Positions 25,262 to 61,100 of a DNA stretch of 64,000 nucleotides are shown one piece after another; position 1 is the stretch's first letter, and the number at the start of each line of letters is the position of its first letter. Source of the DNA: an uncultured Smithella sp. (GTDB lineage: Bacteria; Desulfobacterota; Syntrophia; Syntrophales; Smithellaceae); contig CAYMWM010000001.1 in NCBI GenBank assembly GCA_964394185.1, forward strand, positions 2,233 through 66,232. The letters run 5' to 3'. A program made the position numbers and the translations under genes. The notes under the pieces were generated by a model. It did not search any database and had not been told where the DNA came from. It saw only the letters and a list, made by a program, of their open reading frames with translations.

Positions 25262-25273
25262 ATCAGCCTCTCA

Positions 25274-25687
25274 CTATTGGTGCGGGAGCAGCGCCCCCTG
25301 AAATATAATTTTTAAAATCAGTTTGTCGCCAATCCTGATGGTTCCGCTCATATAAAAAGCGTTATCAAGCTTGTCATCGAGCGTTACCGTAATGGTCAGC
25401 GTATCACCGGGTCTGGCGAAATTTTTAAACTTGGCATCTTTTATCCGGGCCACGACCCCCAATCCCGGCTGTTTTTCGCCTCCCATTAAAATCGCGCCCG
25501 TCTGGAAGCAGGCCTCGCACAATAAAACACCGGGCATAATGGGATTGCCGGGGAAATGTCCCTGAAAAAAATATTCGTCATCCCGGAGGGTTCTTTGCGT
25601 CGTAATTGTATTGCCTTCACGGCTGATAATCTTATCAACAAAAAGAAACGGCGGGCGCTGAGGGATAGCGGCAAGAACTTCGTCCAT
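25274..25687 (-). CDS. fabZ: 3-hydroxyacyl-ACP dehydratase (FabZ/FabA hotdog)
   Basis: PPFLFVDKI...FFQGHFPGNPIMPGVLLCEA. Confidence 0.8.
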   Translation of the reverse strand: MDEVLAAIPQRPPFLFVDKIISREGNTITTQRTLRDDEYFFQGHFPGNPIMPGVLLCEACFQTGAILMGGEKQPGLGVVARIKDAKFKNFARPGDTLTITVTLDDKLDNAFYMSGTIRIGDKLILKIIFQGALLPHQ

Positions 25688-26427
25688 TATAGCCCTCCCG
25701 CCACCGTGATGGTTGTTCCGTTGATATAGGAAGCCTCGCGGGTCGCCAGAAAGAGAACCGCATGGGCTATTTCTTCCACCTTGCCGAAACGCTTCTGCGG
25801 AATCATCCTGAGATATTCTTTTTTTTGTTCATCGGGAAGGTCGCTGATTAATTCGGTATCGATAAAACCGGGAGAGACGCAGTTGACGGTAATGCCTTTT
25901 TTAGCCACTTCTTTCGATAGTGATTTGGTCAAAGCCACCTGACCGGCCTTGGATGCCGCGTAATTTGCCTGTCCCTGAAAGCCCATATCGCCTCCCAGCG
26001 AGCTGATGTTGATAATCCGCCCGAAACGATTGGACATAAAACGGGTAATGATTTCCCGCGACATGTAAAAAGTTCCCGAAAGATTGACATCCAGAACCTT
26101 TTGCCATTGCTCATCGGACATCATCGCCGTAAGCCCGTCCTGCCTGATGCCGGAATTGTTAACCAGCACTTCCAGCGAGGGGTATTTTTCGTCCAGATAT
26201 TTAAATAAATCCTTCACCGCCTGCGAAGAAGAGACATCATATTTCTGAATATCCAGCCTTGGCGCGTATTGTTCATTTTTATTTTTAAAATCATTGGCGG
26301 CGGCATCATTGGATGAATAGGTGGCAATGACCGTCGCGCCCGCCTTGAGAAAGGCCGTGACAATTCCCGCTCCAATGCCCCTCGTGCCGCCGGTGACAAT
26401 AACCCTCTGTCCGCTGAAATCAAACAT
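25687..26427 (-). CDS. fabG: 3-oxoacyl-ACP reductase
   Basis: TGGTRGIGAGI, NISS, YAASKAG SDR motifs. Its stop overlaps the fabZ start. Confidence 0.85.
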   Translation of the reverse strand: MFDFSGQRVIVTGGTRGIGAGIVTAFLKAGATVIATYSSNDAAANDFKNKNEQYAPRLDIQKYDVSSSQAVKDLFKYLDEKYPSLEVLVNNSGIRQDGLTAMMSDEQWQKVLDVNLSGTFYMSREIITRFMSNRFGRIINISSLGGDMGFQGQANYAASKAGQVALTKSLSKEVAKKGITVNCVSPGFIDTELISDLPDEQKKEYLRMIPQKRFGKVEEIAHAVLFLATREASYINGTTITVAGGL

Positions 26428-26436
26428 ATAAACTCC

Positions 26437-27858
26437 TCAGTTTAATTTATCCAAATAGCTATCCACTTCATACGACTGAATCACGCCGTAATTGGCGGCG
26501 CCCAGCCATCCCGACATAATAATGCCGACCGAACCCGTATGAAACAGGCCTTTGATTTCCTTATCCAGTCCCATGGAAATTGCCAGTCCCTCGTGCTTGG
26601 TCCCGAAGGACGAACCCTTCTCGTGATGCGTATATCGTTTGATGGTCACCGGTGTTGCCGCTTCAATATAATCAATTTTTTTGCCGATGCCGGGAATCAC
26701 TTTTTCCAGACTGACCAGCGTTGCCTCAATGAGTTCCTTTTTCTTTGCCTTGTAGTCTTCCTTGCTCAGATTAACCCAGTCTTCGTAACGCGCGTTGGTG
26801 GAAGCGACGATGGTGTACCCGGCATCTGCCAGTTGGGGACGAAGCCTGGGGTAGTAGAGGGAAAACGTCCGGCTGGTCGTTTTCATGGAAAGAAGCTCAT
26901 CTGTCCTGAATTCATCTGCTTCCGAATAAAAAATGAGATCGCCGATGTCTTCGACAACTTCCCCCTGCCTGATGCCCATATAAACCTGACAGGAACTGGT
27001 GTTGAGTCGTACCTTCCTGACCTTTTCCATAAACTGAGGCGTGAATTTGTCTTCGCCGACCAGATTGAAAATAGTGCCGATGAGATTGCCGTTGGAAAGA
27101 ACCGATTTGGAAGAAATAAAATCTCCGCCTACCTCAACCCCCTTGCAGACGTTATTCTCGACGACAATTTTATCCACTTTGGACTTGAGACGGATATCAA
27201 CATTATTGCGCAGAAGCTCTTCCTCCATCATCTGAATCACCAGATCCGTGCCGCCTTGAAAAGTAAAAACCCCTTTGCTCATAAAATTGGAAAAAACGAT
27301 GCCGTAGGTAATGGCCGGGTCTTCAAGCGTCGAACCATTGGCGTAGACAATCGGTTCAATCAGGAAACGATGGACATCTTTTCTGCCGGGGAAAAAACTC
27401 TCCAAAAGTTCCCCGTTGGTCATCTCCTTGTTGTCGTAGTAATTCATGTTCATGATGAGCTTGAAAAAATTATCAACCTGCTCGGGTGCAACTTTAAAAT
27501 CATTGATGAGCTTGCTGGTGAAATTCTCCACGGTGAAATCGCTTTCTATCGAATACATGGGATTGATAAAACGAACCCTTTTGAGTTGAACGATTTTATT
27601 GGCGATTTCCCTGCTCCAGTATTTTTTACAGGTTTTGACCATGCCCACGGGAAATCCATGCAGCGATACATCGAAAATGTGTTTTCCTTTCCGGTGAAAC
27701 CAGGTCGCGAATCCGCCCAGTTTGTCATGGGCTTCGAGCAATAAAATCTTGCGTCCGCCTTTTGCCATCTTATTGGCGGCGGTCAATCCTCCCAGTCCTC
27801 CGCCGATAATAATGACGTCATAATTTTGTGTAATTTTATCTTTATTGTTCAAAAGCAT
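26437..27858 (-). CDS. Phytoene-desaturase-family FAD-dependent oxidoreductase (copy 2)
   Basis: YDVIIIGGGLGGLTAANKMAKGGRKILLLEAHDKLGG dinucleotide fold. CrtI/amine-oxidase-like length (473 aa). Confidence 0.8.
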   Translation of the reverse strand: MLLNNKDKITQNYDVIIIGGGLGGLTAANKMAKGGRKILLLEAHDKLGGFATWFHRKGKHIFDVSLHGFPVGMVKTCKKYWSREIANKIVQLKRVRFINPMYSIESDFTVENFTSKLINDFKVAPEQVDNFFKLIMNMNYYDNKEMTNGELLESFFPGRKDVHRFLIEPIVYANGSTLEDPAITYGIVFSNFMSKGVFTFQGGTDLVIQMMEEELLRNNVDIRLKSKVDKIVVENNVCKGVEVGGDFISSKSVLSNGNLIGTIFNLVGEDKFTPQFMEKVRKVRLNTSSCQVYMGIRQGEVVEDIGDLIFYSEADEFRTDELLSMKTTSRTFSLYYPRLRPQLADAGYTIVASTNARYEDWVNLSKEDYKAKKKELIEATLVSLEKVIPGIGKKIDYIEAATPVTIKRYTHHEKGSSFGTKHEGLAISMGLDKEIKGLFHTGSVGIIMSGWLGAANYGVIQSYEVDSYLDKLN

Positions 27859-27920
27859 TGATTACCTCGCTGAAAGATTACGCACCTTTTCTGTATATTT
27901 TAGCCTTTTGTTGAAAAAAT

Positions 27921-27972
27921 AACAGGAATGTGAAAATGGCGGTGCCTAAATATGGCACCGGCGTTTCCTGTT
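27921..27972 (-). terminator. Intra-operon hairpin followed by a T-run (possible terminator/attenuator)
   Basis: On the minus strand: AACAGGAA...GGTGCC-N7-GGCACC...TTCCTGTT, then ATTTTTT. Nested in a longer inverted repeat (27908-28005). This is the only large gap in the 8-gene operon. Confidence 0.35.
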
Positions 27973-28116
27973 GGATAATTTTAACATATAGCAACTTTTC
28001 AACAATAATCCAATACTAAAAGTAATGGCTCAAATTTTTTAAAGGTTGTTTGAGGTAGATTGGGGCGGGTAAGAATGGTTAATAAAATCGCAAAGAACTT
28101 ATTGGCAGTGCCGAGC

Positions 28117-29148
28117 CTACCATTCGACTCCCAGCATGATTGAATTGAGGCCGGAACCGATGCCCAGTAAACCTACCTTGCTCCCTTTGGGAATCTTCTT
28201 TTGCTCATCAAAAATATTTAACGTAATCGGCAGGGCGGATGCTCCGGTATTGCCCAGATATTGATACGTGATAAAGGTTGGACAATTGTCGAGCTTCAAT
28301 ATTTGTCTTAAAAGCGCTTCGTGCGCCACTCCGACCTGATGGCCGACAAAATAATCAACATCATCATTGGTCCACTTCAGCACCCGTTTTGTTTCTTCCC
28401 ATGTTTTCTCGGCCAGAGCAATGCCGGATTTCATCAGCTCTTCGGAATCGGTTTCCATCATTAATGATGATGTATCACCGCCGCCGCGGCAAAGAACATT
28501 GGCCGATGAATCAACCATTGAGGCTCCTCCCAGCAGCAAATGACCTTCCGGAACACAGTTTTTGTGCGATATCGTATAAGCAACCGCAGCAGCGCCAATC
28601 GTTAAATTCGCGATATATTTTTTAATGCTTTTTCTGGTGATGCTATGATCATTTAACAGATGTTCCATGGTTTGCAGCAGGAGCGGCCCGCCGTTTTCAC
28701 CGGAAACAATAAGAGCGTGTTTGATTAAACCCTGCTCAATCATATTGGCGGCAACCACAAAGGAACTCATCATGCCCAGACAGGCGTTGGACAAATCAAA
28801 GAACATGGTATGTTCCCGCAGTCCCAGATTATAATGAACAATCGAGGAAGTTGATGGTTCCAGATAATCGCGGCACACAGATGCGTGGATGATCAAGTCA
28901 ATATCCTCCGGTTTCACGACATTTTTTGCAAAAAGATTTTTAGCGGCTTGAGTGGACAGATCGCTGGGCATTGTTCCGGGAGGCCAGTAACGCCTTTCTT
29001 TAATTCCCGTCATCATTTCAATCCTGCCGGCGGGAAGTTTAAGGCGTTCATAAACCGGCGCGAGCCTTTCTTCGATTTCAGTCGAAGTCATTATGGTTTC
29101 AGGAATATGATAGGCAAATGACGAAATAACAACATTTTTGAATTTCAT
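28117..29148 (-). CDS. fabH: 3-oxoacyl-ACP synthase III (FabH-like)
   Basis: Start moved to ATG 29148 (MKFKNVV), in an ATGA overlap with the upstream stop. Cys-His-Asn triad contexts SNACLG, VGHQVG, LGNTGASA. Confidence 0.8.
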   Translation of the reverse strand: MKFKNVVISSFAYHIPETIMTSTEIEERLAPVYERLKLPAGRIEMMTGIKERRYWPPGTMPSDLSTQAAKNLFAKNVVKPEDIDLIIHASVCRDYLEPSTSSIVHYNLGLREHTMFFDLSNACLGMMSSFVVAANMIEQGLIKHALIVSGENGGPLLLQTMEHLLNDHSITRKSIKKYIANLTIGAAAVAYTISHKNCVPEGHLLLGGASMVDSSANVLCRGGGDTSSLMMETDSEELMKSGIALAEKTWEETKRVLKWTNDDVDYFVGHQVGVAHEALLRQILKLDNCPTFITYQYLGNTGASALPITLNIFDEQKKIPKGSKVGLLGIGSGLNSIMLGVEW

Positions 29149-30530
29149 GATTTTTCTCCATCCATCAGGCAATGCAGATTGGCCATTGAAATACCGCTGA
29201 GCATGGCGCCGACTATTCCCAGGAATCCCTGATCGGTACCGCAGATAAAAAGATTTTTTATGCCGGTTCTGCCGTCCCGGGACTTTTGCGTGGTTCCATA
29301 AACCGCTCCCTGAAAATGACCGGTATAGCGGGTGATGGTCTTGGGAGTAAAAACATCATGATAAAGAAGGTTGGCCTGAAAGTTTGGGAACATTTTGGCT
29401 ATTAACTTCATCGCTTCATCACAGACCTCTTTTTTTCTCGAGAGATATGTTTTTCTGTCCAGTTCATTCCATTTTTCAAAATTGGCAATAAACGTGACGC
29501 GAATTAATCCTTCCTCATAGTCGTCATAACCGAAATTGTTCGGGAAGCAAATCACGGCGCTTTGGTAATCACACAGCGTCTGCGGTTTTTGATAATGATA
29601 TTTTTCATTTTCATTGGAAAATACAATGGTTTCTTGAATGCCGAATTCGCAGGGCTTCTTGTCAAAGAATAAAATGGTTTCCGTAAAGCTCATATTGCCG
29701 ATGGCGGGAGATTCCTGCCCCTCGGTAACAATGTTCATCGTTTCCGGCAGACCGATGGAGGACATGACTTTGTTGGCCACAAGTTTTTCACCAGAATCCA
29801 ATGTGACGCCTTTCACAACACCATTTTCCACATCTATTTTTTTGATACCGGTTCCCAGGCGCAGTTCGCCGCCCAGTTGGGTATATCTTTCGAGAAGTAA
29901 ATCGATGACCAGACGAACCCCGTTTTTGGGGCGGCTGAAACCTTCCAGATAAATGCTTTTAAACATGATGACAAACTGGGAAAAATCCATGTCGTTTTCC
30001 CAGGCGCTTCCGTAAATCAGCAGGGGGCAGAAAAGCATTTCCAGCAATTTTTCGTCGGTAATAATTTCGCGGACCCTTTCTTTCGCGCTCTGAGGCTTAT
30101 TGTTCAGATTAACCTCATCGAAGTTTTTGACGAGTTCAAGAAGTCTTGCAAAATTATCCTGCTGGCCCGGAAAGGCTCTGGCTATCTCTCCGGTGAGTAA
30201 TTGCGGATTATTGGAAAAAGAAAGATTGCATCCGGGAAATGCTACACATGAGAAATTCTGCTGGGACAAATCCAGTTTTTCGTACGGTATTCTTAATTGC
30301 TTGAGCAGTTTTGTTAAGGGGCGGCCTCTTTCACCCTTTTGGGCAAAATTGGTCATGGCATGCAAACCTACATCCAGCCTTCTGCCCTGCCGTTCATAAT
30401 AGGAATTAAGACCGCCGGGTACTTTATGCCGCTCCAGAATACACACCTTGTGATCGTACATGGCCAGTCTGATGCCTGCCGCCAGACCGGACATGCCCGC
30501 GCCTATGATCAGCGTATCATAATTCGTCAT
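29145..30530 (-). CDS. Phytoene-desaturase-family FAD-dependent oxidoreductase (copy 1)
   Basis: YDTLIIGAGMSGLAAGIRLAMYDHKVCILERHKVPGG, 461 aa. Confidence 0.8.
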   Translation of the reverse strand: MTNYDTLIIGAGMSGLAAGIRLAMYDHKVCILERHKVPGGLNSYYERQGRRLDVGLHAMTNFAQKGERGRPLTKLLKQLRIPYEKLDLSQQNFSCVAFPGCNLSFSNNPQLLTGEIARAFPGQQDNFARLLELVKNFDEVNLNNKPQSAKERVREIITDEKLLEMLFCPLLIYGSAWENDMDFSQFVIMFKSIYLEGFSRPKNGVRLVIDLLLERYTQLGGELRLGTGIKKIDVENGVVKGVTLDSGEKLVANKVMSSIGLPETMNIVTEGQESPAIGNMSFTETILFFDKKPCEFGIQETIVFSNENEKYHYQKPQTLCDYQSAVICFPNNFGYDDYEEGLIRVTFIANFEKWNELDRKTYLSRKKEVCDEAMKLIAKMFPNFQANLLYHDVFTPKTITRYTGHFQGAVYGTTQKSRDGRTGIKNLFICGTDQGFLGIVGAMLSGISMANLHCLMDGEKS

Positions 30531-30793
30531 TATGCGGCTAATGCGAACTTGGGTCCCAGATACTCAATGCAACTTTTCAATGTCGCGAGTTTTATGTAAT
30601 CTTCTGTGGGCACTTCGATTTTATAACGCTTCTTGAGTTCCATCACCACATCCAGAAAATCCATGGAATCCAAATCAAGCTGTTCTCTTAATCTTACATT
30701 GTCATCAAGATTGGTAAGATTCTCGGGATCTTCATCAACGGCTATGTCGGCGATGATTTCAATGATTTTCTTTCTTAAGGTCTGGTAGTCCAT
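30530..30793 (-). CDS. Acyl carrier protein (divergent, not AcpP-like)
   Basis: 87 aa, LDLDSMDFLDVVMEL phosphopantetheine-Ser context. Its stop overlaps the next start. Confidence 0.8.
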   Translation of the reverse strand: MDYQTLRKKIIEIIADIAVDEDPENLTNLDDNVRLREQLDLDSMDFLDVVMELKKRYKIEVPTEDYIKLATLKSCIEYLGPKFALAA

Positions 30794-30814
30794 AATGCCT
30801 CCTGATAAAAAATT

Positions 30815-32056
30815 TTATTTGTTATATTTTTTTATAATTAAAACCGAATTGATTCCCAGCATCCCGAAGGAGTTGCTTAAAATATATTTAACGTCCTTCT
30901 CGACGGGATTACCATTTACGAGATTCTTTAAACTGCACCGGGGATCGACATTTTCAATAAGCTTGCACGAATGAATTTTGTTATCGGTAAAACTGGGTAT
31001 ATTTCCTGCCAGTTCCAGTGCACCGGCGGCGCCCATCGCGTGTCCGATAAATCCCTTGGTGCAATTGATGTAGGTGTTTTCGGATTGTCCGAAGACAGCC
31101 CGAACCGCTTCACATTCATTGATGTCTCCGGATACTGTTCCGGTGGCATGAAGGTTAACGATGTCAATATCATCGGCCTTAAGGTCCGCCTTGGCCATTG
31201 CCGTTTGCATGCATTCAATCTGTCTTTGCGTATCGGGAAGAACAAAATCAACAGCATCGGAATTAACATGATAACCGGCTATTTCGCTGTAAATTTTTGC
31301 TCCTCTTTTCTGGGCATCTTCCAGCCTTTCCAGAACAAAAATCGCTCCACCCTCCGATACAACAATACCATTGCGGTTCACATCCAGCGGGCGGCTGGCA
31401 AGTGTGGGATCTTCATGAGTACCCAGGGCACCCTGACTCTTGAAGCCTGCAAAGATTCCGAAAGTGCCTGTGCTTTCGGAAACGCCTCCCGCCAGAGCCA
31501 GATCAACTTCATCCAGTTGCAGCATTTGCATTCCATGAATAATACCGATATTGCCAGCAGCGCAGGCGGCGCCGATCGTATAGGCAGGACCTGTGATTCC
31601 CAAATTAAGACTGACTTCGCCGGCAGGAGCATTGGCAACCGTTCTGGGATTATGATGATGAGACCATAAGCCGGCATCAAGGTTGTTCGCATGAAGTTCA
31701 TATATTTCGTTTTCCGTTTCCACATTACCGTGCTCGGTGATTCCGAGATAGATGCCCGTTCTGTTTTTAACCAAAGACTCTATGGAGAGGTCGCTGTCGA
31801 GCAGCGCTTCACTTGCGCAATAAATAGAAATTGAACCCGCCCGGGTTCCACGTTTGCGCATTTTTTTCTTTTGATGAAGTGTTTCATCAAAATTACAGTT
31901 TCCTGCTGCCACTTTGCCCATATAGCGTACTTCCATTTCGGTAATTCCGGATTTTTGCGTAAGCAGGGCGCCGCGAAAATCTGTTAGATTATTTCCGTTA
32001 GGAGCCGTAAGCCCGACACCGGTGATAACAATTCTGACATTTTGTTTAAGACCCAT
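30815..32056 (-). CDS. fabF: 3-oxoacyl-ACP synthase II (FabF-like)
   Basis: Active-site contexts GAACAAG, NLHATGT, GHAMGAAG. 413 aa. Confidence 0.85.
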   Translation of the reverse strand: MGLKQNVRIVITGVGLTAPNGNNLTDFRGALLTQKSGITEMEVRYMGKVAAGNCNFDETLHQKKKMRKRGTRAGSISIYCASEALLDSDLSIESLVKNRTGIYLGITEHGNVETENEIYELHANNLDAGLWSHHHNPRTVANAPAGEVSLNLGITGPAYTIGAACAAGNIGIIHGMQMLQLDEVDLALAGGVSESTGTFGIFAGFKSQGALGTHEDPTLASRPLDVNRNGIVVSEGGAIFVLERLEDAQKRGAKIYSEIAGYHVNSDAVDFVLPDTQRQIECMQTAMAKADLKADDIDIVNLHATGTVSGDINECEAVRAVFGQSENTYINCTKGFIGHAMGAAGALELAGNIPSFTDNKIHSCKLIENVDPRCSLKNLVNGNPVEKDVKYILSNSFGMLGINSVLIIKKYNK

Positions 32057-34878: not shown

Positions 34879-36120
34879 TTGAAAAAACGTATTGTTATCA
34901 CCGGATTGGGAACTTTGAATTCTATCGCCAACAATGTACCGGATTTTGCGCAAGCACTCAAAAGCGGTACATGCGGCATCGGACCGGTTGACCTTTTTGA
35001 AACTACCGGATTTCGCAGTCAGATTGGAGGACAGATTAAAAACTTTATTGCCCGTGATTATATTCCCCGGAATTTTTCTACCAAAAGAATGTCACGGGCG
35101 GATATGCTTTCCTTTGCCGCAGCGCTGGAAGCGTTGCGTGACACCGGACTTTATCCGCCGCCTGAAGAATTGAAAGAGGATTTTGGTGTGGTCATCGGCG
35201 GCGGCGGCGGTGGACTTCTCGAAGCGGAAGAATTCTACGGGAAATTATTAAAAACAGACCGAAACGCAAAATTTTCCAGACTATCTGCTCTGTTCTGTGC
35301 CTCTTCCGCTGATTGCCTGGCTTCCGCATTCGGTTTTGCAGGACCGAAATCAACTTTTATGACTGCCTGTTCCGGGGGAGCCACCGCATTGGGTTATGCA
35401 AGGGATTTAATTCTTAACGATCAGGCATCCATTGTGCTTACCGGTGGCGTCGAACCCATGTGCCGGACGACGTATGCCGCCTTTAATGCTCTCAAGTCCG
35501 TTGATCCGGAAACCTGCCGTCCCTTTGATAAAAACCGTTCTGGGCTTTCTCTGGGCGAGGCTGCTGCAATCATGGTGTTGGAGGAACTGGAAGTTGCGCA
35601 AAAAAGAGGCGCTAAAATTTATGCTGAAATTCTGGGTTACGGCATTACCTGCGATTCTTATCACATGACCGCTCCCGATGAAAATGCCTCCGGCGCCATC
35701 CGTTCCATGAAGGCGGCGCTCAAAGACAGTGGCCTTTCCATTGGTGACATTGATTATATCAACGCGCACGGTACAGCCACACCGGTCAACGATGCCATGG
35801 AAACCAAAGCCATCAAGGAAGTCTTTGGCAATCGTGCCTACGCAGTTCCAGTCAGTTCTACCAAGTCCATGCATGCGCACACACTGGGCGCCGCAGGGGC
35901 GCTGGAAGGCATAGTCTCTGTACTGGCGCTTCAGCATGGCTTTATACCGCCGACCATTCATTATCAGGAAAGCGACCCGCAATGCGATCTGGATTACGTC
36001 ACTTCCGGTTCCCGAAACGCCTCTCTGCGAGCGGTGCTTTCCAATTCATTTGCCTTTGGGGGCAACAACACCACATTAATATTCGGCAAGTATTCCGGAA
36101 AGGGTGCTGTTAATGTTTGA
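34879..36120 (+). CDS. Beta-ketoacyl synthase (KS-alpha-like, catalytically complete)
   Basis: TTG start with AAGGA upstream. MTACSGGATA (Cys), CDSYHMTAP and NAHGTATP (His/His). Confidence 0.85.
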   Translation: MKKRIVITGLGTLNSIANNVPDFAQALKSGTCGIGPVDLFETTGFRSQIGGQIKNFIARDYIPRNFSTKRMSRADMLSFAAALEALRDTGLYPPPEELKEDFGVVIGGGGGGLLEAEEFYGKLLKTDRNAKFSRLSALFCASSADCLASAFGFAGPKSTFMTACSGGATALGYARDLILNDQASIVLTGGVEPMCRTTYAAFNALKSVDPETCRPFDKNRSGLSLGEAAAIMVLEELEVAQKRGAKIYAEILGYGITCDSYHMTAPDENASGAIRSMKAALKDSGLSIGDIDYINAHGTATPVNDAMETKAIKEVFGNRAYAVPVSSTKSMHAHTLGAAGALEGIVSVLALQHGFIPPTIHYQESDPQCDLDYVTSGSRNASLRAVLSNSFAFGGNNTTLIFGKYSGKGAVNV

Positions 36121-37354
36121 GGTAAAACAGACAGATAACGCCAGGCGTGTAGTTGTAACCGGCATCGGCATGGTAACTCCTATCGGCATCGGGAAAGAGG
36201 ATTTCTGCCGGAACCTTTTTTCCGGTGAAACCGGCATCGAGGAAATCAAATCATTCGATACAGTGTCTTTGCCGTCTCATTGCGGTGGAGAAGCCGGCAA
36301 TTTTAATCCGCGCGATTTTATCTCCGTGAAAAACATGCGGCGGATGGATAAAACATCTCAACTGACAGTGGCTTCTGTGCGCATGGCAATGGATGATGCC
36401 GGCGTAAAAATCACCGGAGAAAACCGCGATCGCGTGGGAATTATTCTGGGCACTGCATTCGGCGCCACGGATGTAACCGCTCAGTTTGCCGGCACACTGC
36501 TTACGCAGGGTCCGGCTCTTGTCAATCCGATACTCGTTCCCAACATTGTTATGAACGCTCCCGCCGGTCATGCTTCTATTGAACTGGGCTTTCGCGGCAT
36601 AAATACAACGATAACGCATTTTGCCGTATCCGCCGAAACCGCAATTACTTATGCGGCGGCGGAAATAAGACGCGGTACCGCCGATTTTATTCTTGCCGGG
36701 GGAGTAGATATTTTATCCAAATTATATTTCGAATCGCTGATTAAATTTCATGCTCTTTCACCTCAAAAAGGCGGGCCGGAAGGCTGCCGTCCTTTTGACA
36801 GGGCACGCAACGGCATCGTGGCGGCGGAGGGTTGCGGAATGATTTGTCTGGAAAATATGGAATCGGCGATGGCAAGAGGAAGAAAACCCTATTGTGAAAT
36901 CATAGGGGTAGGCATGGGTTCCTCACCGGCAAAATCCACCGGCTGGCCGCAGACTACAGACGGGATAAAACATACATTGAATCGTGCGCTGAAAAACGCC
37001 GGTTGCATGGCAAACGACATTCAGGCCATTTCTGCGGCGGGTAACGGAGATGTAATCCTTGATGCCGTTGAAGCTGACGCATACACTGAAATATTTGCCG
37101 CTTCAGAAAAAAAACCTTTCATCACCGCGCTTAAAGGTGCAACAGGAGAAAGCTTCTCGGGTGGCGGCATCAGGGCTTGTGCCTTAGCCCTGTGTATCGA
37201 TAAAAATATTCTGCCGTCGACAGCGGGGCTTACAAATCCCGTAAGGCCGTTGGCGTTTGTCACTGGTGAAAAACAGAAAATAGAAATCAATCATGCGATT
37301 CTTGCCGGTATTTCTTTTGGCGGTACATATGCCTATCTGATTTTCGGCAAATGA
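36113..37354 (+). CDS. Cys-less KS paralogue (chain-length-factor-like partner)
   Basis: ATG 36113 overlaps the KS stop (ATGTTTGA). The active-site position reads THFAVSAET (Cys to Ala). The His motif is degenerate (ISAAGNGD). Confidence 0.8.
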   Translation: MFEVKQTDNARRVVVTGIGMVTPIGIGKEDFCRNLFSGETGIEEIKSFDTVSLPSHCGGEAGNFNPRDFISVKNMRRMDKTSQLTVASVRMAMDDAGVKITGENRDRVGIILGTAFGATDVTAQFAGTLLTQGPALVNPILVPNIVMNAPAGHASIELGFRGINTTITHFAVSAETAITYAAAEIRRGTADFILAGGVDILSKLYFESLIKFHALSPQKGGPEGCRPFDRARNGIVAAEGCGMICLENMESAMARGRKPYCEIIGVGMGSSPAKSTGWPQTTDGIKHTLNRALKNAGCMANDIQAISAAGNGDVILDAVEADAYTEIFAASEKKPFITALKGATGESFSGGGIRACALALCIDKNILPSTAGLTNPVRPLAFVTGEKQKIEINHAILAGISFGGTYAYLIFGK

Positions 37355-37443
37355 CTCTATATGATTTTTATTGGCGGAAAGCATAAAATATTGTAAATAT
37401 CGTGTTGTATTGAAAAAATTATTAACCAATTGAAAGTAAAATC

Positions 37444-38682
37444 ATGAAATTTAAACTTATTTATCCGAAATGGGAAAAACTGGAACGTCAAACCAGTTTT
37501 ATATTGCCACCGCACGGACCTGTTGTTTTTGCCGCCGCACTGCCTGATGATGTGGATGTGGAATTTGTTGATGAAAACATACAGGAAATTGATTTCGAGC
37601 AGGAAGTTGATTTTGTCGGCGTTTCGGTAATGCTGACGGTGCAGATAAAGCGCGGCTGGGAAATAGCCGATAAGTTCAGGGAAAAAGGCATCAAGGTCAT
37701 ATTCGGTGGTATCGCCACCATGCTGCACTCAGAAGAAACCCGAAAACATGCCGACAGTGTCTTTTTGGGAGAAGCAGAAGGTCGCATGGAAAGGGTATTC
37801 GATGATTTTAAAAACGGCAGGCTCCAGCGGGTTTACGATTACATGCAGGATTTGCCGGCCATTGAAACTGTCGGAACCGCACGCAGAAGCATTTTAAACC
37901 GTGACGCATATAATTACAGGGGTGTGCAGATGGTTGATCTGGTGCATGCCTCGAGAGGCTGCCGCTTCAACTGTTATCCTTGCGCCGTGAGATTTCTTGG
38001 TGGACGAAAATTCCGTCCACGCCCCTTTGATAAAGTCGTTGCGGAAATGGCCAGCATTGACAACAACAGACTTTTTATTGTTGATAATTCACTGGCACAG
38101 GACAAACAGTGGGAAATGGATTTATTCCGGGAAATGATTCCGCTAAAGAAAAAATGGTGTTGCCATCCCATTGAAAATGACGATGGCGTGCTGGATCTTG
38201 CCGCTCAGGCAGGTGCGTGGTTTGTTTATCAGGCAATTTTTGATTCTTCCGATTTCATCCGCGACCGCATCAAGCGCTATCATGATTACGGTATTGCCGT
38301 GGAAGGCAGTATCCTGCTGGGGCTTGATTATCACACAGAGGATTATATCAAAAAGCTGGTTGATTTTCTGCTGGATGTTGAGTTGGACATGGCGGAATTT
38401 ACAGTACTGACTCCTTTTCCGCATACAAGGACTTTTGATGATTTGCATAATGAAAAAAGAATTTTATCTTATGACTGGAATGATTATACTTGCGGAAAAG
38501 TTGTGTTTCAGCCCAAAATGCTTACGCTTGGGGAATTGCAGACTCTTTATTATTACGCATGGGATAAATTTTATGAAGAAGAACCGCAAACCTATAAAAT
38601 GTTCAAGTTGCTGAAAAAAGTTACTGATAAAGAAAAGGCGGATGGTACATATAAGCCGCGAGTACGCAAAAGAGAAGTCTAA
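37444..38682 (+). CDS. B12-binding-domain radical SAM enzyme (class B), copy 1
   Basis: N-terminal Rossmann-like cobalamin-binding-type domain, then HASRGCRFNCYPCAV (Cx3Cx2C). Confidence 0.85.
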   Translation: MKFKLIYPKWEKLERQTSFILPPHGPVVFAAALPDDVDVEFVDENIQEIDFEQEVDFVGVSVMLTVQIKRGWEIADKFREKGIKVIFGGIATMLHSEETRKHADSVFLGEAEGRMERVFDDFKNGRLQRVYDYMQDLPAIETVGTARRSILNRDAYNYRGVQMVDLVHASRGCRFNCYPCAVRFLGGRKFRPRPFDKVVAEMASIDNNRLFIVDNSLAQDKQWEMDLFREMIPLKKKWCCHPIENDDGVLDLAAQAGAWFVYQAIFDSSDFIRDRIKRYHDYGIAVEGSILLGLDYHTEDYIKKLVDFLLDVELDMAEFTVLTPFPHTRTFDDLHNEKRILSYDWNDYTCGKVVFQPKMLTLGELQTLYYYAWDKFYEEEPQTYKMFKLLKKVTDKEKADGTYKPRVRKREV

Positions 38683-38701: not shown

Positions 38702-40258
38702 ATGATGAAAAAAAATAACAACAAGGGTGCCGTTGTCATCGACGGCAGCAATATCCGTTTCAATGATATTATCACTGTATCGCGCTACGGCATGCCCGTG
38801 CAGATAAGTAAATCGGGGAAATTCATAAAAATGATGGGCAGAACCCAGGAAATTCTCATGGATTCCATGCGCAAAGGGGTTCCTGTTTACGGCGTGACAA
38901 CCGGCTATGGCAAGTCATGCGGCAAGCGCATGTCATTTGATATAGCCCTGAAAAACGGCGTCAACATTTTTACTTTTCACGGCTGCGGAACGGGAGAGCC
39001 CATCGGCATTGAAGAAACGAGGGCGGCCATGCTGTGCCGCATTATCTGTCTGGCGCGCGGTTATTCAGGAGTGTCCATTGCCCTGCTGCAGCAAATGGCG
39101 GATTTTCTGAATCACGGCATAACACCGGTAGTTCCCTGCGAAGGTTCTGTCGGTGCCTCCGGTGATTTGACGCCGATGTCGTATGTCGGAGCCTGCCTTG
39201 CCGGAGAACGCAATGTCATTTATCAGGGCAAGACCATGCCCTCATCCAAAGCGCTAAGGGAAGCAGGACTCAAACCTTACAAATATTTACCAAAAGAACC
39301 GCTGGCGATGGTGAACGGCACGACAACCATGACCGGCATAGCCGTTTTAGCTGTCGAGAGAGCCTGGCGGATTTTATCCGCGGCAATTTCTGCGACAGCG
39401 CTTTCCATTCACGCGCTCAAGGGAAACGCCCGGCATTATCATCCGGTGATTTCGGAGGCTAAATCTTTTCCCGGCCAGGCTTTTGTCTCCGCCCAGATTA
39501 TCAATCTCTTAAAATCCAAAGTACCGGCTCACAAACTTGAAGATGACGCTTTGGAAACTTTGCAGGACCCATACTCCCTGCGTTGTGCTCCGCAAGTGGC
39601 GGGCGTTTTATATGACAGCCTCGACTGGATAAAAAAATGGGTGGAGATTGAAGCGAACAGCTCCAACGACAACCCGATTTTTAATCCCAAAACCGGAGAA
39701 GTGCTCATGGGCGGCAATTTTTACGGCGGGCATATAGCTTTTGCGATGGATGGCCTTAAAGCCGCGCTGGCATCTATTGCCGATATGTGTGACCGGCAGA
39801 TCATGCTTTTGGTGAATCCGAATTTAAACAGGGGATTGCCCGGAGATCTCGTGAGAAAATCCGGCAAAGTGAAAGGATTGCGCCATGGTTTCAAGGCCAT
39901 GTCGATCTCCTCTTCCGCCCTCACGGCAGAGGCGCTCAAAGCCACTATGCCTGCGGCTTCCTTTTCGCGTTCAACCGAATCCCATAATCAGGACAAAGTA
40001 AGCATGGGAACGATAGCTGCACGTGATGCTGAAAGGATTTGTACGCTGACGGAACGCGTTGTGGCCATTCATCTTCTGGCGGCTGCTCAGGCCTGCGATA
40101 TCAGAAGCAATATTGTAGCAAGACCGCTACTGGCCGGTCTTTTGAAGAGCATCAGGAAAGTATCGGCTCCTGTCGTGGACGACAGGGCAATGGATAAAGA
40201 CATTGAAAATATCTGCGAAGCAATAAAATACTCCGATTTTTTTAAGATGAAACCATGA
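38702..40258 (+). CDS. MIO-dependent ammonia-lyase/aminomutase family protein (HAL/PAL/TAL family)
   Basis: ATG 38702 after GGGGGAG. GSVGASGDLTPMSY, with the Ala-Ser-Gly MIO triad at 39155-39163. Substrate not assignable by eye. Confidence 0.85.
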   Translation: MMKKNNNKGAVVIDGSNIRFNDIITVSRYGMPVQISKSGKFIKMMGRTQEILMDSMRKGVPVYGVTTGYGKSCGKRMSFDIALKNGVNIFTFHGCGTGEPIGIEETRAAMLCRIICLARGYSGVSIALLQQMADFLNHGITPVVPCEGSVGASGDLTPMSYVGACLAGERNVIYQGKTMPSSKALREAGLKPYKYLPKEPLAMVNGTTTMTGIAVLAVERAWRILSAAISATALSIHALKGNARHYHPVISEAKSFPGQAFVSAQIINLLKSKVPAHKLEDDALETLQDPYSLRCAPQVAGVLYDSLDWIKKWVEIEANSSNDNPIFNPKTGEVLMGGNFYGGHIAFAMDGLKAALASIADMCDRQIMLLVNPNLNRGLPGDLVRKSGKVKGLRHGFKAMSISSSALTAEALKATMPAASFSRSTESHNQDKVSMGTIAARDAERICTLTERVVAIHLLAAAQACDIRSNIVARPLLAGLLKSIRKVSAPVVDDRAMDKDIENICEAIKYSDFFKMKP

Positions 40259-40674
40259 ATGAAAAAAATAAAAGCTTTGAAGTCAGAATCCGCGTGCCTT
40301 TCTTTGATCTCGATCCCATGCAGATCGTCTGGCATGCCAACTATCTGAACTATTTTGAAGTGGCGCGCGCGGCGCTTTTCGAAAATAACGGGATTGATCT
40401 TTACTCCTTTTTTCAAAAGCAACAATTAATCTTCCCCATCATCAAAACATCAACCAAGCATATACTCCCTCTGCGTCACCGTGATGAAATTATCTGCAAA
40501 GCGACGCTTGTCGACGCGTATGTCAAACTGGTTGTTGATTTTGAAATCCGCAGGGTGGATGACGGCAAGGTCTGTGCCCGCGGTCGCACGGAACAGGTCA
40601 CGGTAAAGGCTCCGGAAATGGAAACCCTGTTCAGTGTTCCCGAAGAAATTCGCCGCGCCTTTGGTTTTTCATAA
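40255..40674 (+). CDS. Hotdog-fold acyl-CoA/ACP thioesterase (4HBT/YbgC type)
   Basis: FEVRIRVPFFDLDPMQIVWHANYLNYFE. ATGA overlap with the lyase stop. Confidence 0.75.
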   Translation: MNEKNKSFEVRIRVPFFDLDPMQIVWHANYLNYFEVARAALFENNGIDLYSFFQKQQLIFPIIKTSTKHILPLRHRDEIICKATLVDAYVKLVVDFEIRRVDDGKVCARGRTEQVTVKAPEMETLFSVPEEIRRAFGFS

Positions 40675-42395
40675 TGGAAAATATTTTACAAAAGTCTTTT
40701 ATTGCCGGCCTGGAGAGGCTTGTCGCCCGCGCGGAATTGCTTGATTCCATCAATGTTTTTCCCATTGCCGACGGTGATACGGGAAGAAATCTATCCATAA
40801 GTCTTTTCCCTCTGCGTGAGGTTGGTGAACCTGATGAAAAAATCATTCACCGGCTTCTTATATCGGCGCGCGGAAATTCGGGGAATATCGCCTCGCAGTT
40901 TTTTTCCGCTTTTTGCATGGCGCAAAATGTTTCTCAACTAGCAGACCGCGCCAAAGATGGCGCCAAGAAAGCATGGCAGGCCGTGAGCAATCCCCGTTCG
41001 GGCACCATGCTGAATGTCTTTGACGCTCTTGCCGAAGTTCTGACTCAGGATTTAAATCCGGATAAACCGGCGGTGGATGCGATCATTGCTTCACTGGAAA
41101 ACGCCGTCCACAAAACCTACGAACAACTGCCGCGGCTACAGGAGGCGCAGGTTGTAGACGCCGGCGCTCTGGGTGTATACATTTTTTTTGAAGGATTCTT
41201 TTATGCTCTTGCCGGTATCTCTGAAGATTGCCATCCTGTGACGGAAACCTTTAAAAATCGTCTCAAAATTTCTTCTTCATTTCAGGAAAAAACGGAATCG
41301 GGTTATTGCGTTGATTTTGTCGTCAAGGCTCCCCGTTACTCGCCTGAAGAAATAAAGATAATCACCAGCGTTCAGGAGGAAGTTATTATCATTCCAGAAG
41401 GCGATTTTTACAAAATACATTTACATACTCAGGACAAGGAAAAGGTCCGTGATCAAATAAGCGGGCTGGGCAATGTCATCAACTGGGAAGACGATAATCT
41501 CGCCTCTCAGGTTAACCAGTTCATGCAGTCAAAAGACGGCCGGAATTTTCATATCATGACCGACGCCGCGGGTTCTCTGACCCATCAAGACGCCAAAAAT
41601 TATAACTTCACGCTTTTAAACAGTTATCTGACCGTCGGTGAAAAATGCATGCCGGAAACGTATTACCATCCTGAAGAACTTTACAAAGCCATGCTTAAAG
41701 GCATCAAGGTATCGACGTCGCAGGCTTCCGTGTACGAAAGACATCAGTTCTATCAAAGTGTTCTGGAGAGGTATGAAAAGGTTTTATATCTGTGTGTCGG
41801 CTCCGTGTTTACAGGCAATTATCAGATAGCGCTCCAGTGGAAGAAAGAACACAATAAACAGGATAGTTTTTTGGTATTGGACACCGGAGCGGCATCGGGC
41901 AGACTGGGCACAATCGCTCTGGCGACCGCGCGATATCTGGCGGAAACGAATGATATGAAAAAAACCGTTGTGTTTGCCCGGAAAGCCGTGCAGGAATGCG
42001 AAGAATATGTGTTTTTGGACAAACTGCAATATCTGGCCGAGGGCGGCCGTCTTTCCAAAACCAGCGCCAGGTTCGGCGATATGCTGCATATGAAACCGGT
42101 AGTATCTCCCCTGCCCGAAGGGGTAAAAAAAGCCGGTGTGGTCAGAAATCAGGAAGACCAGCTTAAGTTTGCCTTAAAAAAACTTGACGCATCAATCAAA
42201 GACGATTCCCGCGCATTCATCATGCTGGAATATTCAGATAACAAAAACTGGGTTGAAGGCACTGTCAAGAAGGAACTGGAAGCGTTATATGCGGACGCGG
42301 AAATTATTCTGCAGCCGTTGTCGCTGACATCCGGCGCGCACATGGGGCCGGGGACGTGGGGGGTTGCCTTTCTGCCGGATAGAACAACTTCATAA
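40674..42395 (+). CDS. FakA-like fatty-acid kinase: Dak2 (DhaL) domain plus DegV-type C-terminal domain
   Basis: LLDSINVFPIADGDTGRNL and SARGNSGNIASQFF match the FakA/DhaL N-terminus. The C-terminal half is FHIMTDAAGSL...LLNSYLTVGEK, DegV-like. TAATG overlap with the thioesterase. Confidence 0.7.
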   Translation: MENILQKSFIAGLERLVARAELLDSINVFPIADGDTGRNLSISLFPLREVGEPDEKIIHRLLISARGNSGNIASQFFSAFCMAQNVSQLADRAKDGAKKAWQAVSNPRSGTMLNVFDALAEVLTQDLNPDKPAVDAIIASLENAVHKTYEQLPRLQEAQVVDAGALGVYIFFEGFFYALAGISEDCHPVTETFKNRLKISSSFQEKTESGYCVDFVVKAPRYSPEEIKIITSVQEEVIIIPEGDFYKIHLHTQDKEKVRDQISGLGNVINWEDDNLASQVNQFMQSKDGRNFHIMTDAAGSLTHQDAKNYNFTLLNSYLTVGEKCMPETYYHPEELYKAMLKGIKVSTSQASVYERHQFYQSVLERYEKVLYLCVGSVFTGNYQIALQWKKEHNKQDSFLVLDTGAASGRLGTIALATARYLAETNDMKKTVVFARKAVQECEEYVFLDKLQYLAEGGRLSKTSARFGDMLHMKPVVSPLPEGVKKAGVVRNQEDQLKFALKKLDASIKDDSRAFIMLEYSDNKNWVEGTVKKELEALYADAEIILQPLSLTSGAHMGPGTWGVAFLPDRTTS

Positions 42396-43228: not shown

Positions 43229-43945
43229 ATGAGTACCAAAAATAAAAATAATCGAATTGCCTTTATCATTCCCGTTTATAATCATGCCGGGACGGTGGCG
43301 CAGGTGGTGAAGGATACACAGGCGTTGGGCTTTCCCGTCTTTGTTGTTGACGACGGTTCAACCGATAATACATACGATCAGATTAAAGACATAGCCGGTA
43401 TTCAAGTCCTGCGGCACGAGCAGAATCAGGGGAAGGGCGCGGCCATCCTGACCGGCTTTGCCGCGGCTACGGCTGTGGCCGATTGGGCCATCACGATGGA
43501 TGCCGACGGTCAGCACTATCCCCGGGATGCCAAAGGACTTATCAAGGCTATTCCCAAGAAAGACCGGGCGATCATAGTGGGAGCAAGAACCTATCAGGAA
43601 GGCGAACATGTTCCCTGGACGAGCCGTTTTGGCCGGAAATTTTCCAACTTCTGGGTGCGAACATCCGGAGGACCAAGTATTTCGGATTCCCAGAGTGGCT
43701 TTCGCATTTATCCAATGCCCGAGGCCCTTAATCTTCCGACAAAAGCGCGGCGCTTCCAGTTTGAAGTGGAAATTTTGGTGCAAGCCAAAAGAAAAGGTAT
43801 CCCGGTAATGGAAGCGCCGGTGCGCGTCAACTATAATCCCGGCGGTGAAAGAATTTCTCATTTTCGCCCTTTTGTGGATTTTTTACACAATTCCTCAACG
43901 TTTACCCGTCTGATTTTTACCCGCATATTTCCACCGCGAAAATAG
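43229..43945 (+). CDS. Family 2 glycosyltransferase
   Basis: IIPVYNHAGTV...VVDDGSTDNT and MDADGQH (DxD) motifs. Confidence 0.8.
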   Translation: MSTKNKNNRIAFIIPVYNHAGTVAQVVKDTQALGFPVFVVDDGSTDNTYDQIKDIAGIQVLRHEQNQGKGAAILTGFAAATAVADWAITMDADGQHYPRDAKGLIKAIPKKDRAIIVGARTYQEGEHVPWTSRFGRKFSNFWVRTSGGPSISDSQSGFRIYPMPEALNLPTKARRFQFEVEILVQAKRKGIPVMEAPVRVNYNPGGERISHFRPFVDFLHNSSTFTRLIFTRIFPPRK

Positions 43946-49770: not shown

Positions 49771-49855
49771 AAGCAAGCGGGGTGTTTGCGGAAAATTCGG
49801 GAGATAATATATTAAAAATTCAACATCATAAAAAAATTTGGGAGGAGGGGCAAAT

Positions 49856-52662: not shown

Positions 52663-53064
52663 ATGAAGGTAGGAGAAGTTCCACAGGATAATACTATTGA
52701 ATATTATGAAGGGATAAAACGCGCCTGTTATGCGGTCAATGATGAAGGGAAGTATGTCATTGTGCCAAGCAACGGCTGGAGCGAGGAGGAATTTATCAAT
52801 CGCATGGCCGTTAATGAGCTGGCTGTTAATCTGGAGAAAACCAGAAAAGCCGTGCTTGCCGGGGAAAAAAGTTCTCTCGCTTATCATATGGAGCGGCGGC
52901 AGATGACCCCGGATATTCTAGGTAAAACAGCCGGTATTGCCGTATTTCGGGTAAAAAGGCATTGCCGGCCGGAAATTTTCGCAACACTCAAAGATTCTGT
53001 TCTGGATCTTTACGCAAAAGCTCTCGCTATGACTATAGACGAATTAAAAAACGTACCTCAATAA
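52663..53064 (+). CDS. Hypothetical protein with a possible C-terminal HTH
   Basis: 133 aa. MTPDILGKTAGIAVFRVKRH resembles an XRE-type helix-turn-helix. Confidence 0.4.
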   Translation: MKVGEVPQDNTIEYYEGIKRACYAVNDEGKYVIVPSNGWSEEEFINRMAVNELAVNLEKTRKAVLAGEKSSLAYHMERRQMTPDILGKTAGIAVFRVKRHCRPEIFATLKDSVLDLYAKALAMTIDELKNVPQ

Positions 53065-61030: not shown

Positions 61031-61100
61031 CCCTCGCGATACAAGCAATATCTTATCAAAAAACAAGTTGAGAAAATCCGAATAATGTCAGGGGTCTTTT

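Follow-up and report, generated by a model that had tools for sequence, protein, structure and literature searches.

Does the recurrence of a ketosynthase (KS), a KS partner lacking the catalytic cysteine and a radical S-adenosylmethionine (SAM) enzyme with a B12-binding-type domain mark a repeated, self-contained module, or membership of a larger biosynthetic system? The question is raised by two gene triads, KS1-KS2-rSAM1 and KS3-KS4-rSAM2, on a 64,000-nucleotide stretch of contig CAYMWM010000001.1 from an uncultured Smithella sp. (hereafter the window, meaning this whole stretch), in which an initial annotation had seen a hard-wired pairing of an elongation heterodimer with a cobalamin-type radical SAM enzyme. 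We find that both triads are corners of a single lipid gene cluster of ~36 kb (about 24.4–60.0 kb) in this Smithellaceae genome, and we read the region, with a probability of about 0.6, as one cluster for a membrane-anchored, aryl-polyene/flexirubin-like lipid in a strict-anaerobe version.

KS1 comprises 413 residues, includes the TACSGG, SYHMTAP and NAHGTAT motifs, and scored 420.6 bits against the NCBIfam FabF-subfamily model PRK07314, for which the cut-off is 387. Its aligned active-site positions hold Cys, His, Lys and His, giving a catalytic subunit with a complete Cys-His-His triad, the only such triad in the window, and KS1 is on this alignment predicted to be a competent, catalytically complete ketosynthase. 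The ATG of KS2 lies at 36113, where ATGTTTGA (36113–36120) forms an 8-nucleotide overlap with the KS1 stop, and the same start was chosen by an independent gene call on the identical public contig. KS2 is likewise 413 residues long, both proteins have fabF as their top or nearly top NCBIfam model, and the KS2 scores against the two actinorhodin subunits (125.5 and 122.4 bits) compare with 214 bits against FabF. Alignment of KS2 to Bacillus FabF and KS1 showed Ala at the Cys position (THFAVSAET), Lys at the first His, SAAGN in place of NAHGT and Glu at the second His. No alternative Cys was found at the nucleophile position in the FabF alignment; a catalytic Cys kept elsewhere in KS2 was what the initial annotation had named as refuting its reading. 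Between the end of KS2 (37354) and the start of rSAM1 (37444) lies an AT-rich spacer of 89 nucleotides with no terminator-like hairpin and a single promoter-like match, which is within chance expectation. The KS1 motifs, the 8-nucleotide overlap, the Ala and the degenerate His motif of KS2, the 89-nucleotide gap and the CRFNCYPC motif of rSAM1 all stood as first described when checked against the sequence.

Orthologues of KS2 in three other Syntrophales genomes (loci L002, L003 and L014 of the survey described below) keep the Ala at 64–73% identity, always with KS1 alongside; among the loci listed, this FabF-like pair was seen in Syntrophales only. The alignments thereby mark KS2 as a conserved, apparently catalytically dead FabF paralogue. 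The proposal that KS1 and KS2 form a pair of the KS/chain-length factor (CLF) type is supported by their full-length, FabF-like sequences, the overlapping genes, the triad lost in KS2, its conservation and the likeness to a pair from anammox bacteria.

The second set of KS, Cys-less KS and radical SAM genes noted in the initial annotation is present at 56.0–59.9 kb, preceded by an acyl carrier protein (ACP) gene, ACP2. Gaps or overlaps of 2–4 nucleotides separate ACP2, KS3, KS4 and rSAM2 (4 nucleotides between KS3 and KS4). KS4 scored 24.4 bits against PF13723, just below the cut-off of 25, and its best and sole solved relative is the anammox protein amxFabFmut (9s5h_C, E = 5.5e-8). As judged by alignment, acylation at the canonical position would be impossible in both KS2 and KS4. 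The order thus recurs as had been claimed; that it is a repeated module of non-identical paralogues did not hold, as KS1 and KS3 share 28% identity, similarity between KS2 and KS4 is not significant, and rSAM1 and rSAM2 share 24% identity in the radical SAM core only. A recent duplication of a three-gene module is ruled out by the same values. By these comparisons, the two triads are unrelated KS/CLF types, each beside a different predicted radical SAM family. Among the other ketosynthases, KS5 (30815–32056) keeps the Cys and second His and has Asp at the first catalytic His, and a KS3-like protein at survey locus L017 (3–980) has Ser at this position, as does KS3.

The two radical SAM proteins differ in how clearly they match known families. 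For rSAM1 the Pfam matches are marginal (B12-binding 32.8 bits, cut-off 32.1; Radical_SAM 25 bits, cut-off 29.5), and both domains were matched in all 24 aligned members of its family, whereas rSAM2 scored 73.5 bits for B12-binding (PF02310) and 99.4 bits for Radical_SAM. Both carry a CX3CX2C motif, CRFNCYPC in rSAM1, where it is invariant across the family alignment, and CMYQCSYC in rSAM2. The named relatives closest to rSAM2 are HpnJ, ApyD and BchE, every score being far under the respective cut-off, and among solved structures rSAM1 finds a relative in AprD4 alone (E = 1e-4), a protein that has a B12-type domain but is not known to use cobalamin. After clustering at 50% identity, rSAM1 has two full-length representatives above 50% identity, followed by a large family at or below 38%. 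Its clade is without ~18 residues after the fourth core strand (near residues 268–270), a segment that relatives at 30–38% identity all have, including 'ES..L....K'. An AlphaFold model of rSAM1, built on a shallow alignment of sequences 80–87% identical, reached a mean predicted local distance difference test score of 57.9 and is confident only in the N-terminal alpha/beta domain. Membership of the ladderane-type radical SAM family TIGR04072 was ruled out for both proteins by scores far below its cut-off of 360 (48.0 bits for rSAM1, 100.9 bits for rSAM2). On these profile and motif comparisons, rSAM1 and rSAM2 represent two different predicted B12-domain radical SAM families.

We then followed rSAM1 across genomes by a profile scan of one genome per species, with a seven-sequence alignment as the query, taking the best 600 pattern matches and the best 80 loci; neighbouring genes were assigned by phmmer with the window proteins and spot Pfam checks, and the counts below refer to the loci so listed, numbered with the prefix L. 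The best matches to rSAM1 (80–87% identity) carry the names Smithella, Smithellaceae or Syntrophaceae. The scan returned at least 27 orthologue loci (48–86% identity) and at least 53 paralogue loci (27–36% identity), with orthologues hosted by Syntrophales, Desulfobulbaceae, Desulfococcus, Desulfonema, Desulfuromonadaceae, Nitrospirota, Bacteroidota, Phycisphaerales, Polyangiaceae and Fibrobacterota. Lipid-cluster genes were found at 26 of the 27 orthologue loci. A KS lay within 10 kb at 21 of 27 orthologue loci compared with 5 of 53 paralogue loci (phylogenetically non-independent samples; Fisher p = 1e-9), and the association of rSAM1 with KS genes exceeds chance at the level of the cluster.

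Direct adjacency is kept less widely. At eight of the ~25 assessable loci (L015, L016, L017, L018, L020, L023, L024 and L027), a KS with the Cys-His-His triad and then a short KS-like open reading frame (ORF), whose Cys position is taken by Asn, Gly, Glu, Ala, Ser or His, stand immediately 5' of rSAM1, with one intervening ORF at L017, a fused pair at L020 and the short ORF alone seen at L024. Locus L092 also has a KS and Cys-less partner directly before its rSAM1 orthologue. This order is found in Nitrospirota, Desulfuromonadaceae, Phycisphaerales, Desulfonema and others; at L021 the order is rSAM1, KS, CLF. In the closest relatives (L002 and L014, with rSAM1 84–86% identical), genes for an AMP-dependent ligase and an acyl-CoA dehydrogenase lie between KS2 and rSAM1, and at L003 the KS1/KS2 pair is ~5 kb off on the opposite strand. 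Desulfobulbales, whose rSAM1 orthologues are at L004, L026 and L162, have a divergently transcribed ACP and a KS-CLF fusion of 711–724 residues, then (an ApeP-like dehydratase), ketoreductase (KR), LolA, lipoprotein and rSAM1 genes, the immediate predecessors of rSAM1 being the LolA-like gene and one for a ~220-residue protein without a Pfam match. In Bacteroidota rSAM1 follows either a DarH-ACP-sulfotransferase run or a pair of desaturase-like genes; over all orders, desaturase-like genes adjoin 6 of the 27 orthologues.

The pairing of KS/CLF and rSAM1 is therefore not hard-wired, given the intervening genes at L002 and L014, the distance at L003 and the other neighbours in Desulfobulbales and Bacteroidota. 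The initial annotation had proposed to check whether the three genes co-occur and had named an adjacency not conserved in related genomes as refuting its reading. We find that a KS within 10 kb is usual, that a KS plus Cys-less partner directly upstream occurs at the eight loci above, and that adjacency is absent from the nearest relatives and recurs in other phyla. The link between rSAM1 and KS/CLF genes is one of cluster membership, within which adjacency is frequent, not obligatory.

Several further features of these loci concern the same genes. Fused KS-CLF proteins occur in Desulfobulbales (L004, 4314–6488; L162, 1–916), with matches to PF00109, PF02801 and PF13723 (50.3 bits for PF13723 at L004), and a 595-residue fusion stands immediately upstream of rSAM1 at L020 (8217–10004); such gene fusions give independent support for a KS-CLF complex. 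A fusion of FakA (Dak2) with DegV accompanies rSAM1 orthologues in several orders (L003, L004, L009, L014, L019, L026 and L162), mostly before genes for a family 2 glycosyltransferase (GT2) and an LpxL-like acyltransferase, which suggests an acyl-phosphate step passing the product to a lipid anchor. A sulfotransferase-family gene between ACP and the rSAM1 orthologue at two loci (L010, 8850–9950, confirmed with Pfam; L013, 8858–9946) hints at a sulfated product in the Bacteroidota. Locus L162 belongs to Desulfocapsa sulfexigens DSM 10523 (CP003985.1, 151244–172506), a cultured, sulfur-disproportionating bacterium with a complete genome; its rSAM1 orthologue (711 bits) stands in an aryl-polyene-like cluster with two more radical SAM genes and genes for an ApeP-like dehydratase, KR, LolA, AMP-ligase, FakA-DegV, GT2 and LpxL.

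A metagenome scan with rSAM2 gave neighbourhoods in which conservation falls into tiers. Close relatives (77–88% identity) retain the order DarG-DarH-ABC-ABC-ACP-KS3-KS4-rSAM2; orthologues at 46–49% identity (L017 and L092–L094) stand in the same cluster family, alongside rSAM1 orthologues and in another order, namely thioesterase, KS, CLF, rSAM1 orthologue, third B12-type radical SAM, rSAM2 orthologue, LpxL, ACP, KS, CLF, DarG, DarH, ABC; and relatives at or below 36% have no KS genes nearby. A locus at 64% identity (L090) is a short contig with no KS upstream. From these tiers it follows that co-membership is the deep conserved feature: one cluster houses both radical SAM families together with two KS/CLF pairs. 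The doubled order of KS, CLF and radical SAM genes is a Smithellaceae arrangement. Orthologues of rSAM1 and rSAM2 are conserved members of such clusters across phyla. In the clusters of the Desulfuromonadaceae type, three consecutive B12-domain radical SAM genes are flanked by two KS/CLF pairs (L017, 10001–14066; L092, 7154–11437, with the gene of the third family at 8490–9833).

The genes around the two triads are listed in Table 1. The divergent operon resembling fatty-acid synthase (FAS) genes on the minus strand is probably part of the same cluster; it places two Amino_oxidase/CrtI-like genes, ACP1 and FabA/Z at 25.3–30.8 kb, with the desaturase-like genes 5–8 kb upstream of the triad. The aromatic amino-acid ammonia-lyase, resembling tyrosine and phenylalanine ammonia-lyases (TAL/PAL), has the GASGDL motif that forms the 4-methylideneimidazole-5-one cofactor and scores under the NCBIfam cut-offs for HAL, BagA and FlxA (the latter two being tyrosine ammonia-lyase models); it is the probable supplier of an aryl starter. 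No cobalamin genes were found elsewhere in the window, of which positions 1–24 kb hold housekeeping genes. The far boundary of the cluster is a tRNA-Arg gene (60016–60092; anticodon CCT), 77 nucleotides past rSAM2. The following ~4 kb (60016–64000) have no ORF above 168 residues and a GC content of ~0.40–0.43, which may point to an insertion at the tRNA that has since decayed, or to several pseudogenes in a row.

Table 1. Genes of the Smithella lipid cluster, in window positions, with the basis of each assignment.
Feature	Position	Strand	Assignment	Basis
FAS-like operon (divergent)	24470-32056	-	FabI-like, FabA/Z, FabG, two phytoene-desaturase-like flavoproteins, FabH-like, ACP1, KS5	
KS1	34879-36120	+	FabF-like ketosynthase, full-length, Cys/His/Lys/His active site intact	PF00109, PF02801, motifs, alignment
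KS2	36113-37354	+	FabF-like partner, full-length, triad replaced (Ala/Lys/Glu), CLF-like subunit	Overlap, alignment
rSAM1	37444-38682	+	Divergent radical SAM enzyme, N-terminal B12-binding-type domain, CRFNCYPC	Pfam, motif, family alignment
Ammonia-lyase	38702-40258	+	Aromatic amino-acid ammonia-lyase (TAL/PAL-like)	PF00221 503.8 bits; GASGDL
Thioesterase	40255-40674	+	4HBT-type thioesterase (ApeK-like)	Profile matches
FakA-DegV	40674-42395	+	Dak2(FakA)-DegV fusion, fatty-acid-kinase-like	Profile matches
GT2	43229-43945	+	GT2 glycosyltransferase (ApeJ-like)	Pfam; kept in related clusters
Exporter	46702-49770	+	RND/MMPL-type exporter fused to C-terminal class-I SAM methyltransferase domain (1022 aa)	Pfam, NCBIfam
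AMP-ligase	49838-51574	+	AMP-dependent ligase (acyl or aryl acid activation)	Profile matches
Acyltransferase	51602-52480	+	LpxL/lysophospholipid-type acyltransferase (ApeD-like)	Profile matches
DarG	52663-53064	+	DarG-family protein	NCBIfam NF053536 132.3 bits (cut-off 70)
DarH	53086-54123	+	DarH, BtrH-like acyltransferase	NCBIfam NF053550 398.3 bits (cut-off 300)
ABC ATPase	54120-54863	+	ABC transporter ATPase	Pfam
ABC permease	54920-56038	+	ABC-2 permease	Pfam
ACP2	56029-56340	+	Acyl carrier protein	PF00550
KS3	56337-57500	+	Ketosynthase, Cys and second His kept, Ser at first catalytic His	Pfam, alignment
KS4	57505-58488	+	Short (327 aa), very divergent CLF-like protein, Glu at Cys position	PF13723, structure-sequence match, alignment
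rSAM2	58491-59939	+	Class-B radical SAM enzyme, CMYQCSYC, HpnJ/BchE-like range	Pfam, NCBIfam, motif

We read the cluster as being of aryl-polyene/dar type because of its gene content (TAL-like lyase, 4HBT thioesterase, GT2, MMPL exporter, AMP-ligase, LpxL-like acyltransferase, ACPs, KR, dehydratase (DH), DarG and DarH); because of its dar-type order, the residues of KS2 kept in orthologues and the precedent of the anammox heterodimer (PDB 9s5h); and because rSAM1 loci hold lipid genes and KS genes at the frequencies given above, with rSAM2 orthologues and the Desulfocapsa example in the same cluster family. Classical type II polyketide synthase CLFs have Gln at the Cys position. Like actinorhodin-type KS/CLF pairs, the Smithella pairs are encoded by adjacent genes and include, in KS1, a complete catalytic subunit, whereas Ala (KS2) and Glu (KS4) stand where a Gln would be expected.

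The type II KS and short CLF of aryl-polyene (APE) clusters (ApeA-R; ApeO/ApeC) may have a counterpart in the Smithella cluster, where KS4 is borderline for PF13723. APE clusters share with the Smithella cluster ACP, AMP-ligase, LpxL-like acyltransferase, GT2, 4HBT thioesterase, MMPL exporter, KR, DH and methyltransferase genes, and share with its relatives LolA-like and ApeP-like genes. They differ in that the published descriptions examined mention neither radical SAM nor desaturase-like genes, and KS1 and KS2 are full-length and FabF-like, not ApeO/ApeC-like; we also know of no FakA-DegV fusion in APE clusters. With the dar clusters for flexirubin and arcuflavin in Chitinophaga, Flavobacterium and Azoarcus (PMC3992019, PMC3949708), the Smithella cluster shares a starter supply of the tyrosine-ammonia-lyase type and a run of DarG-family protein, DarH (BtrH-like), ABC ATPase, ABC permease, ACP, KS and CLF-like or hypothetical protein that matches the Azoarcus order darD-E-F-I-C-J-K; it is without DarA and DarB and has a B12-type radical SAM gene after the KS/CLF pair instead. 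Within this dar-type module, alignment identifies KS3 and KS4 as a second KS/CLF-like pair, apparently unrelated to KS1/KS2. A literature search on aryl polyene or flexirubin with B12, and on arylpolyene or ladderane in Syntrophales or Smithella, found no description of a radical-SAM-containing cluster of the APE type.

The initial annotation knew of no described module of this kind; one had, however, been published. Anammox Cluster I (KustE3603-3608) combines a B12 radical SAM gene and one resembling phytoene dehydrogenase with amxACP, amxFabZ and the KS amxFabF2 plus its mutated counterpart amxFabFmut (Rattray 2009, PMC2649909; Granatino 2026, bioRxiv 10.64898/2026.05.19.726425). Biochemistry and crystallography (PDB 9s5h) have established amxFabF2/amxFabFmut as a KS/CLF-like heterodimer whose dead subunit affects chain-length preference (Granatino 2026, bioRxiv 10.64898/2026.05.19.726425), and synteny between Kuenenia Kuste3335-3352 and DP1853-1860 of the deltaproteobacterium Desulfotalea psychrophila, which makes polyunsaturated hydrocarbons and not ladderanes, was reported for divergent FabF paralogues, radical SAM enzymes and desaturase-like genes (Rattray 2009, PMC2649909). 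Shared with Cluster I are two neighbouring FabF paralogues of full length, in one of which every triad residue is substituted, and a B12-type radical SAM, desaturase-like flavoproteins, ACP and FabZ within a lipid cluster. The differences are as follows: the dead KS comes first in anammox, in reverse of the Smithella order; its Cys position holds Val or Thr where KS2 has Ala; the Smithella radical SAM proteins fall outside TIGR04072; the aryl-polyene and dar-type genes are additional; and the Smithella host is a syntroph, in which ladderanes are not expected. By bit score, neither KS1 (321.6 bits to 9s5h_B, 328.2 to Bacillus FabF) nor KS2 (210.9 bits to 9s5h_C, 214.1 to Bacillus FabF) is preferentially similar to the anammox proteins.

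With the Kuenenia and Desulfotalea regions, the cluster shares a FAS-like setting, several divergent FabF paralogues, radical SAM enzymes and amine-oxidase/phytoene-desaturase-like genes, and Desulfobulbales hold rSAM1 orthologues. Desulfotalea was not named among the best 120 matches (at least 84% identity) to the Desulfocapsa rSAM1 orthologue, and any link to DP1853/DP1855 is putative. A further parallel is Jaw5 of jawsamycin biosynthesis, a radical SAM cyclopropanase that acts during iterative polyketide chain growth (review PMC13459092). Common to both would be a radical SAM enzyme modifying a carrier-bound ketoacyl chain stepwise; the partner of Jaw5 is an iterative polyketide synthase, not a discrete KS/CLF. 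Jaw5 itself is HemN-like and is not known to carry a B12 domain.

In the pathway that we propose, an aryl acid derived from Tyr or Phe by the ammonia-lyase would be activated by the AMP-ligase and prime an ACP-bound chain, which KS1-KS2 and KS3-KS4, each as a KS/CLF heterodimer, would extend; in each pair the dead subunit would shape the tunnel for the acyl chain and thereby determine its length. KR and DH enzymes would convert the chain to a polyene, the thioesterase would release the product, FakA-DegV, the LpxL-like acyltransferase, DarH and GT2 would re-activate it or transfer it to an anchor, either lipid or sugar, and export would fall to the RND and ABC systems. The radical SAM enzymes would carry out oxygen-independent tailoring of the growing or finished acyl chain. 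The recurrent order KS-CLF-rSAM1 favours their action on ACP-bound intermediates, and the recurrent order rSAM1-FakA-DegV-GT2-LpxL favours action on released ones. C-methylation or alkylation at an unactivated carbon may be the likeliest single chemistry, with roughly one chance in three, because most of this enzyme class does it; C-C bond formation, cyclisation or desaturation are the alternatives. More broadly, strict anaerobes of many phyla might use KS/CLF heterodimers and one to three cobalamin-type radical SAM enzymes, often with desaturase-like flavoproteins, to assemble, in the absence of oxygen, a polyene or aryl lipid of unusual structure, whether methyl-branched, cyclised or cross-linked, with KS-CLF-radical SAM as an iterative 'elongate, then radical-modify' module on ACP, a generalisation that we consider doubtful.

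Several points weigh against the preferred reading. Among the window proteins scanned there is no DarA, and the FabH-like gene reaches 29.2 bits where the DarB cut-off is 550, leaving the window without a DarB; DarA and DarB together make the dialkylresorcinol of true flexirubins. No gene for a LolA-like or DUF3261-like lipoprotein was found in the window. The lyase scores under all of its NCBIfam cut-offs and may use either Tyr or Phe, and KS3 and KS5, without the first catalytic His, may not perform ordinary malonyl decarboxylation and condensation. With a marginal Pfam match for rSAM1 and AprD4 as its sole solved relative, its cobalamin dependence is putative; methylation would be a prior taken from the enzyme class, in a cluster that already encodes a class-I methyltransferase domain; and the label 'aryl-polyene-like', as applied to the whole cluster family, is drawn from gene content.

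The same gene orders also admit other explanations. The partners of rSAM1 might be the late lipid-anchoring genes (FakA-DegV, GT2 and LpxL-like) and not KS/CLF, its position 89 nucleotides from KS2 being a by-product of gene loss or rearrangement. In keeping with this, Syntrophales, Desulfobulbales, Desulfococcus and Polyangiaceae preserve the order rSAM1, (AMP-ligase or TAL-thioesterase), FakA-DegV, GT2, LpxL at the seven FakA-DegV loci given above; two genes separate KS2 from rSAM1 in the closest relatives; and rSAM1 of Desulfobulbales comes after FabG-LolA-lipoprotein, not KS. However, at least eight loci in other phyla have rSAM1 right after a KS and Cys-less partner with FakA-DegV absent from the 10-kb flanks, and plain membership of the cluster would account for both patterns. 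We regard an exclusive tie to anchoring as somewhat unlikely. Far less probable, in our view, is that nothing functional connects these genes, with KS1 as a surplus housekeeping FabF, KS2 as a duplicate in decay and the radical SAM genes as neighbours without relation to them: the score of KS1 above the FabF-subfamily cut-off and the variable gene order around rSAM1 would suit such a view, but KS2 is intact, full length and conserved beside KS1 in three other Syntrophales genomes, KS genes are strongly enriched near rSAM1 orthologues and the genes of the second triad are tightly packed.

It is also conceivable that the cluster corresponds, in Smithella, to the FAS clusters of 'anaerobic polyunsaturated fatty acid / ladderane-type' in Kuenenia and Desulfotalea. 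Its desaturase-like flavoproteins and radical SAM enzymes would then yield alkyl lipids that are polyunsaturated or cyclised, in place of an aryl polyene. A KS, a dead KS, a B12 radical SAM, a phytoene-desaturase-like protein, ACP and FabZ are the defining content of Cluster I and of Kuste3335-3352/DP1853-1860, two desaturase-like genes lie 5–8 kb upstream here, rSAM1 orthologues occur in Desulfobulbales, and the literature notes, as unexplained, that 'ladderane' gene clusters are called in Desulfobacterota, Fibrobacterota, Myxococcota and further phyla. Set against these likenesses are the TIGR04072 scores, the lack of any closer similarity of KS1 and KS2 to amxFabF2/amxFabFmut than to Bacillus FabF, the reversed anammox gene order and the lack of any anammox genome in the 27 orthologue loci, while the lyase, DarG/DarH, GT2, LpxL, MMPL and the ApeP-like dehydratase of relatives indicate the aryl-polyene type. 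We consider a ladderane-type product improbable here and retain the aryl-polyene/flexirubin-like lipid as the preferred reading.

The theme of KS, dead KS and B12 radical SAM is thus already published for anammox bacteria and Desulfotalea, and what is new here is the presence of different radical SAM families in an aryl-polyene/dar-type cluster of anaerobes: a genome-mining observation that is correct, on a theme known in part, and that establishes no new principle. The mapped clusters would contribute a large and phylogenetically broad candidate set, some with three B12-type radical SAM genes in a row, and 'ladderane' and 'arylpolyene' genome-mining calls in non-anammox anaerobes are better read as one family. 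Anammox bacteria are without genetic access, whereas the cultured and fully sequenced Desulfocapsa sulfexigens DSM 10523 offers an experimental entry point. Should the elongate-then-modify module prove true, it would parallel Jaw5 with discrete enzymes and offer a tractable model of the unsolved ladderane problem.

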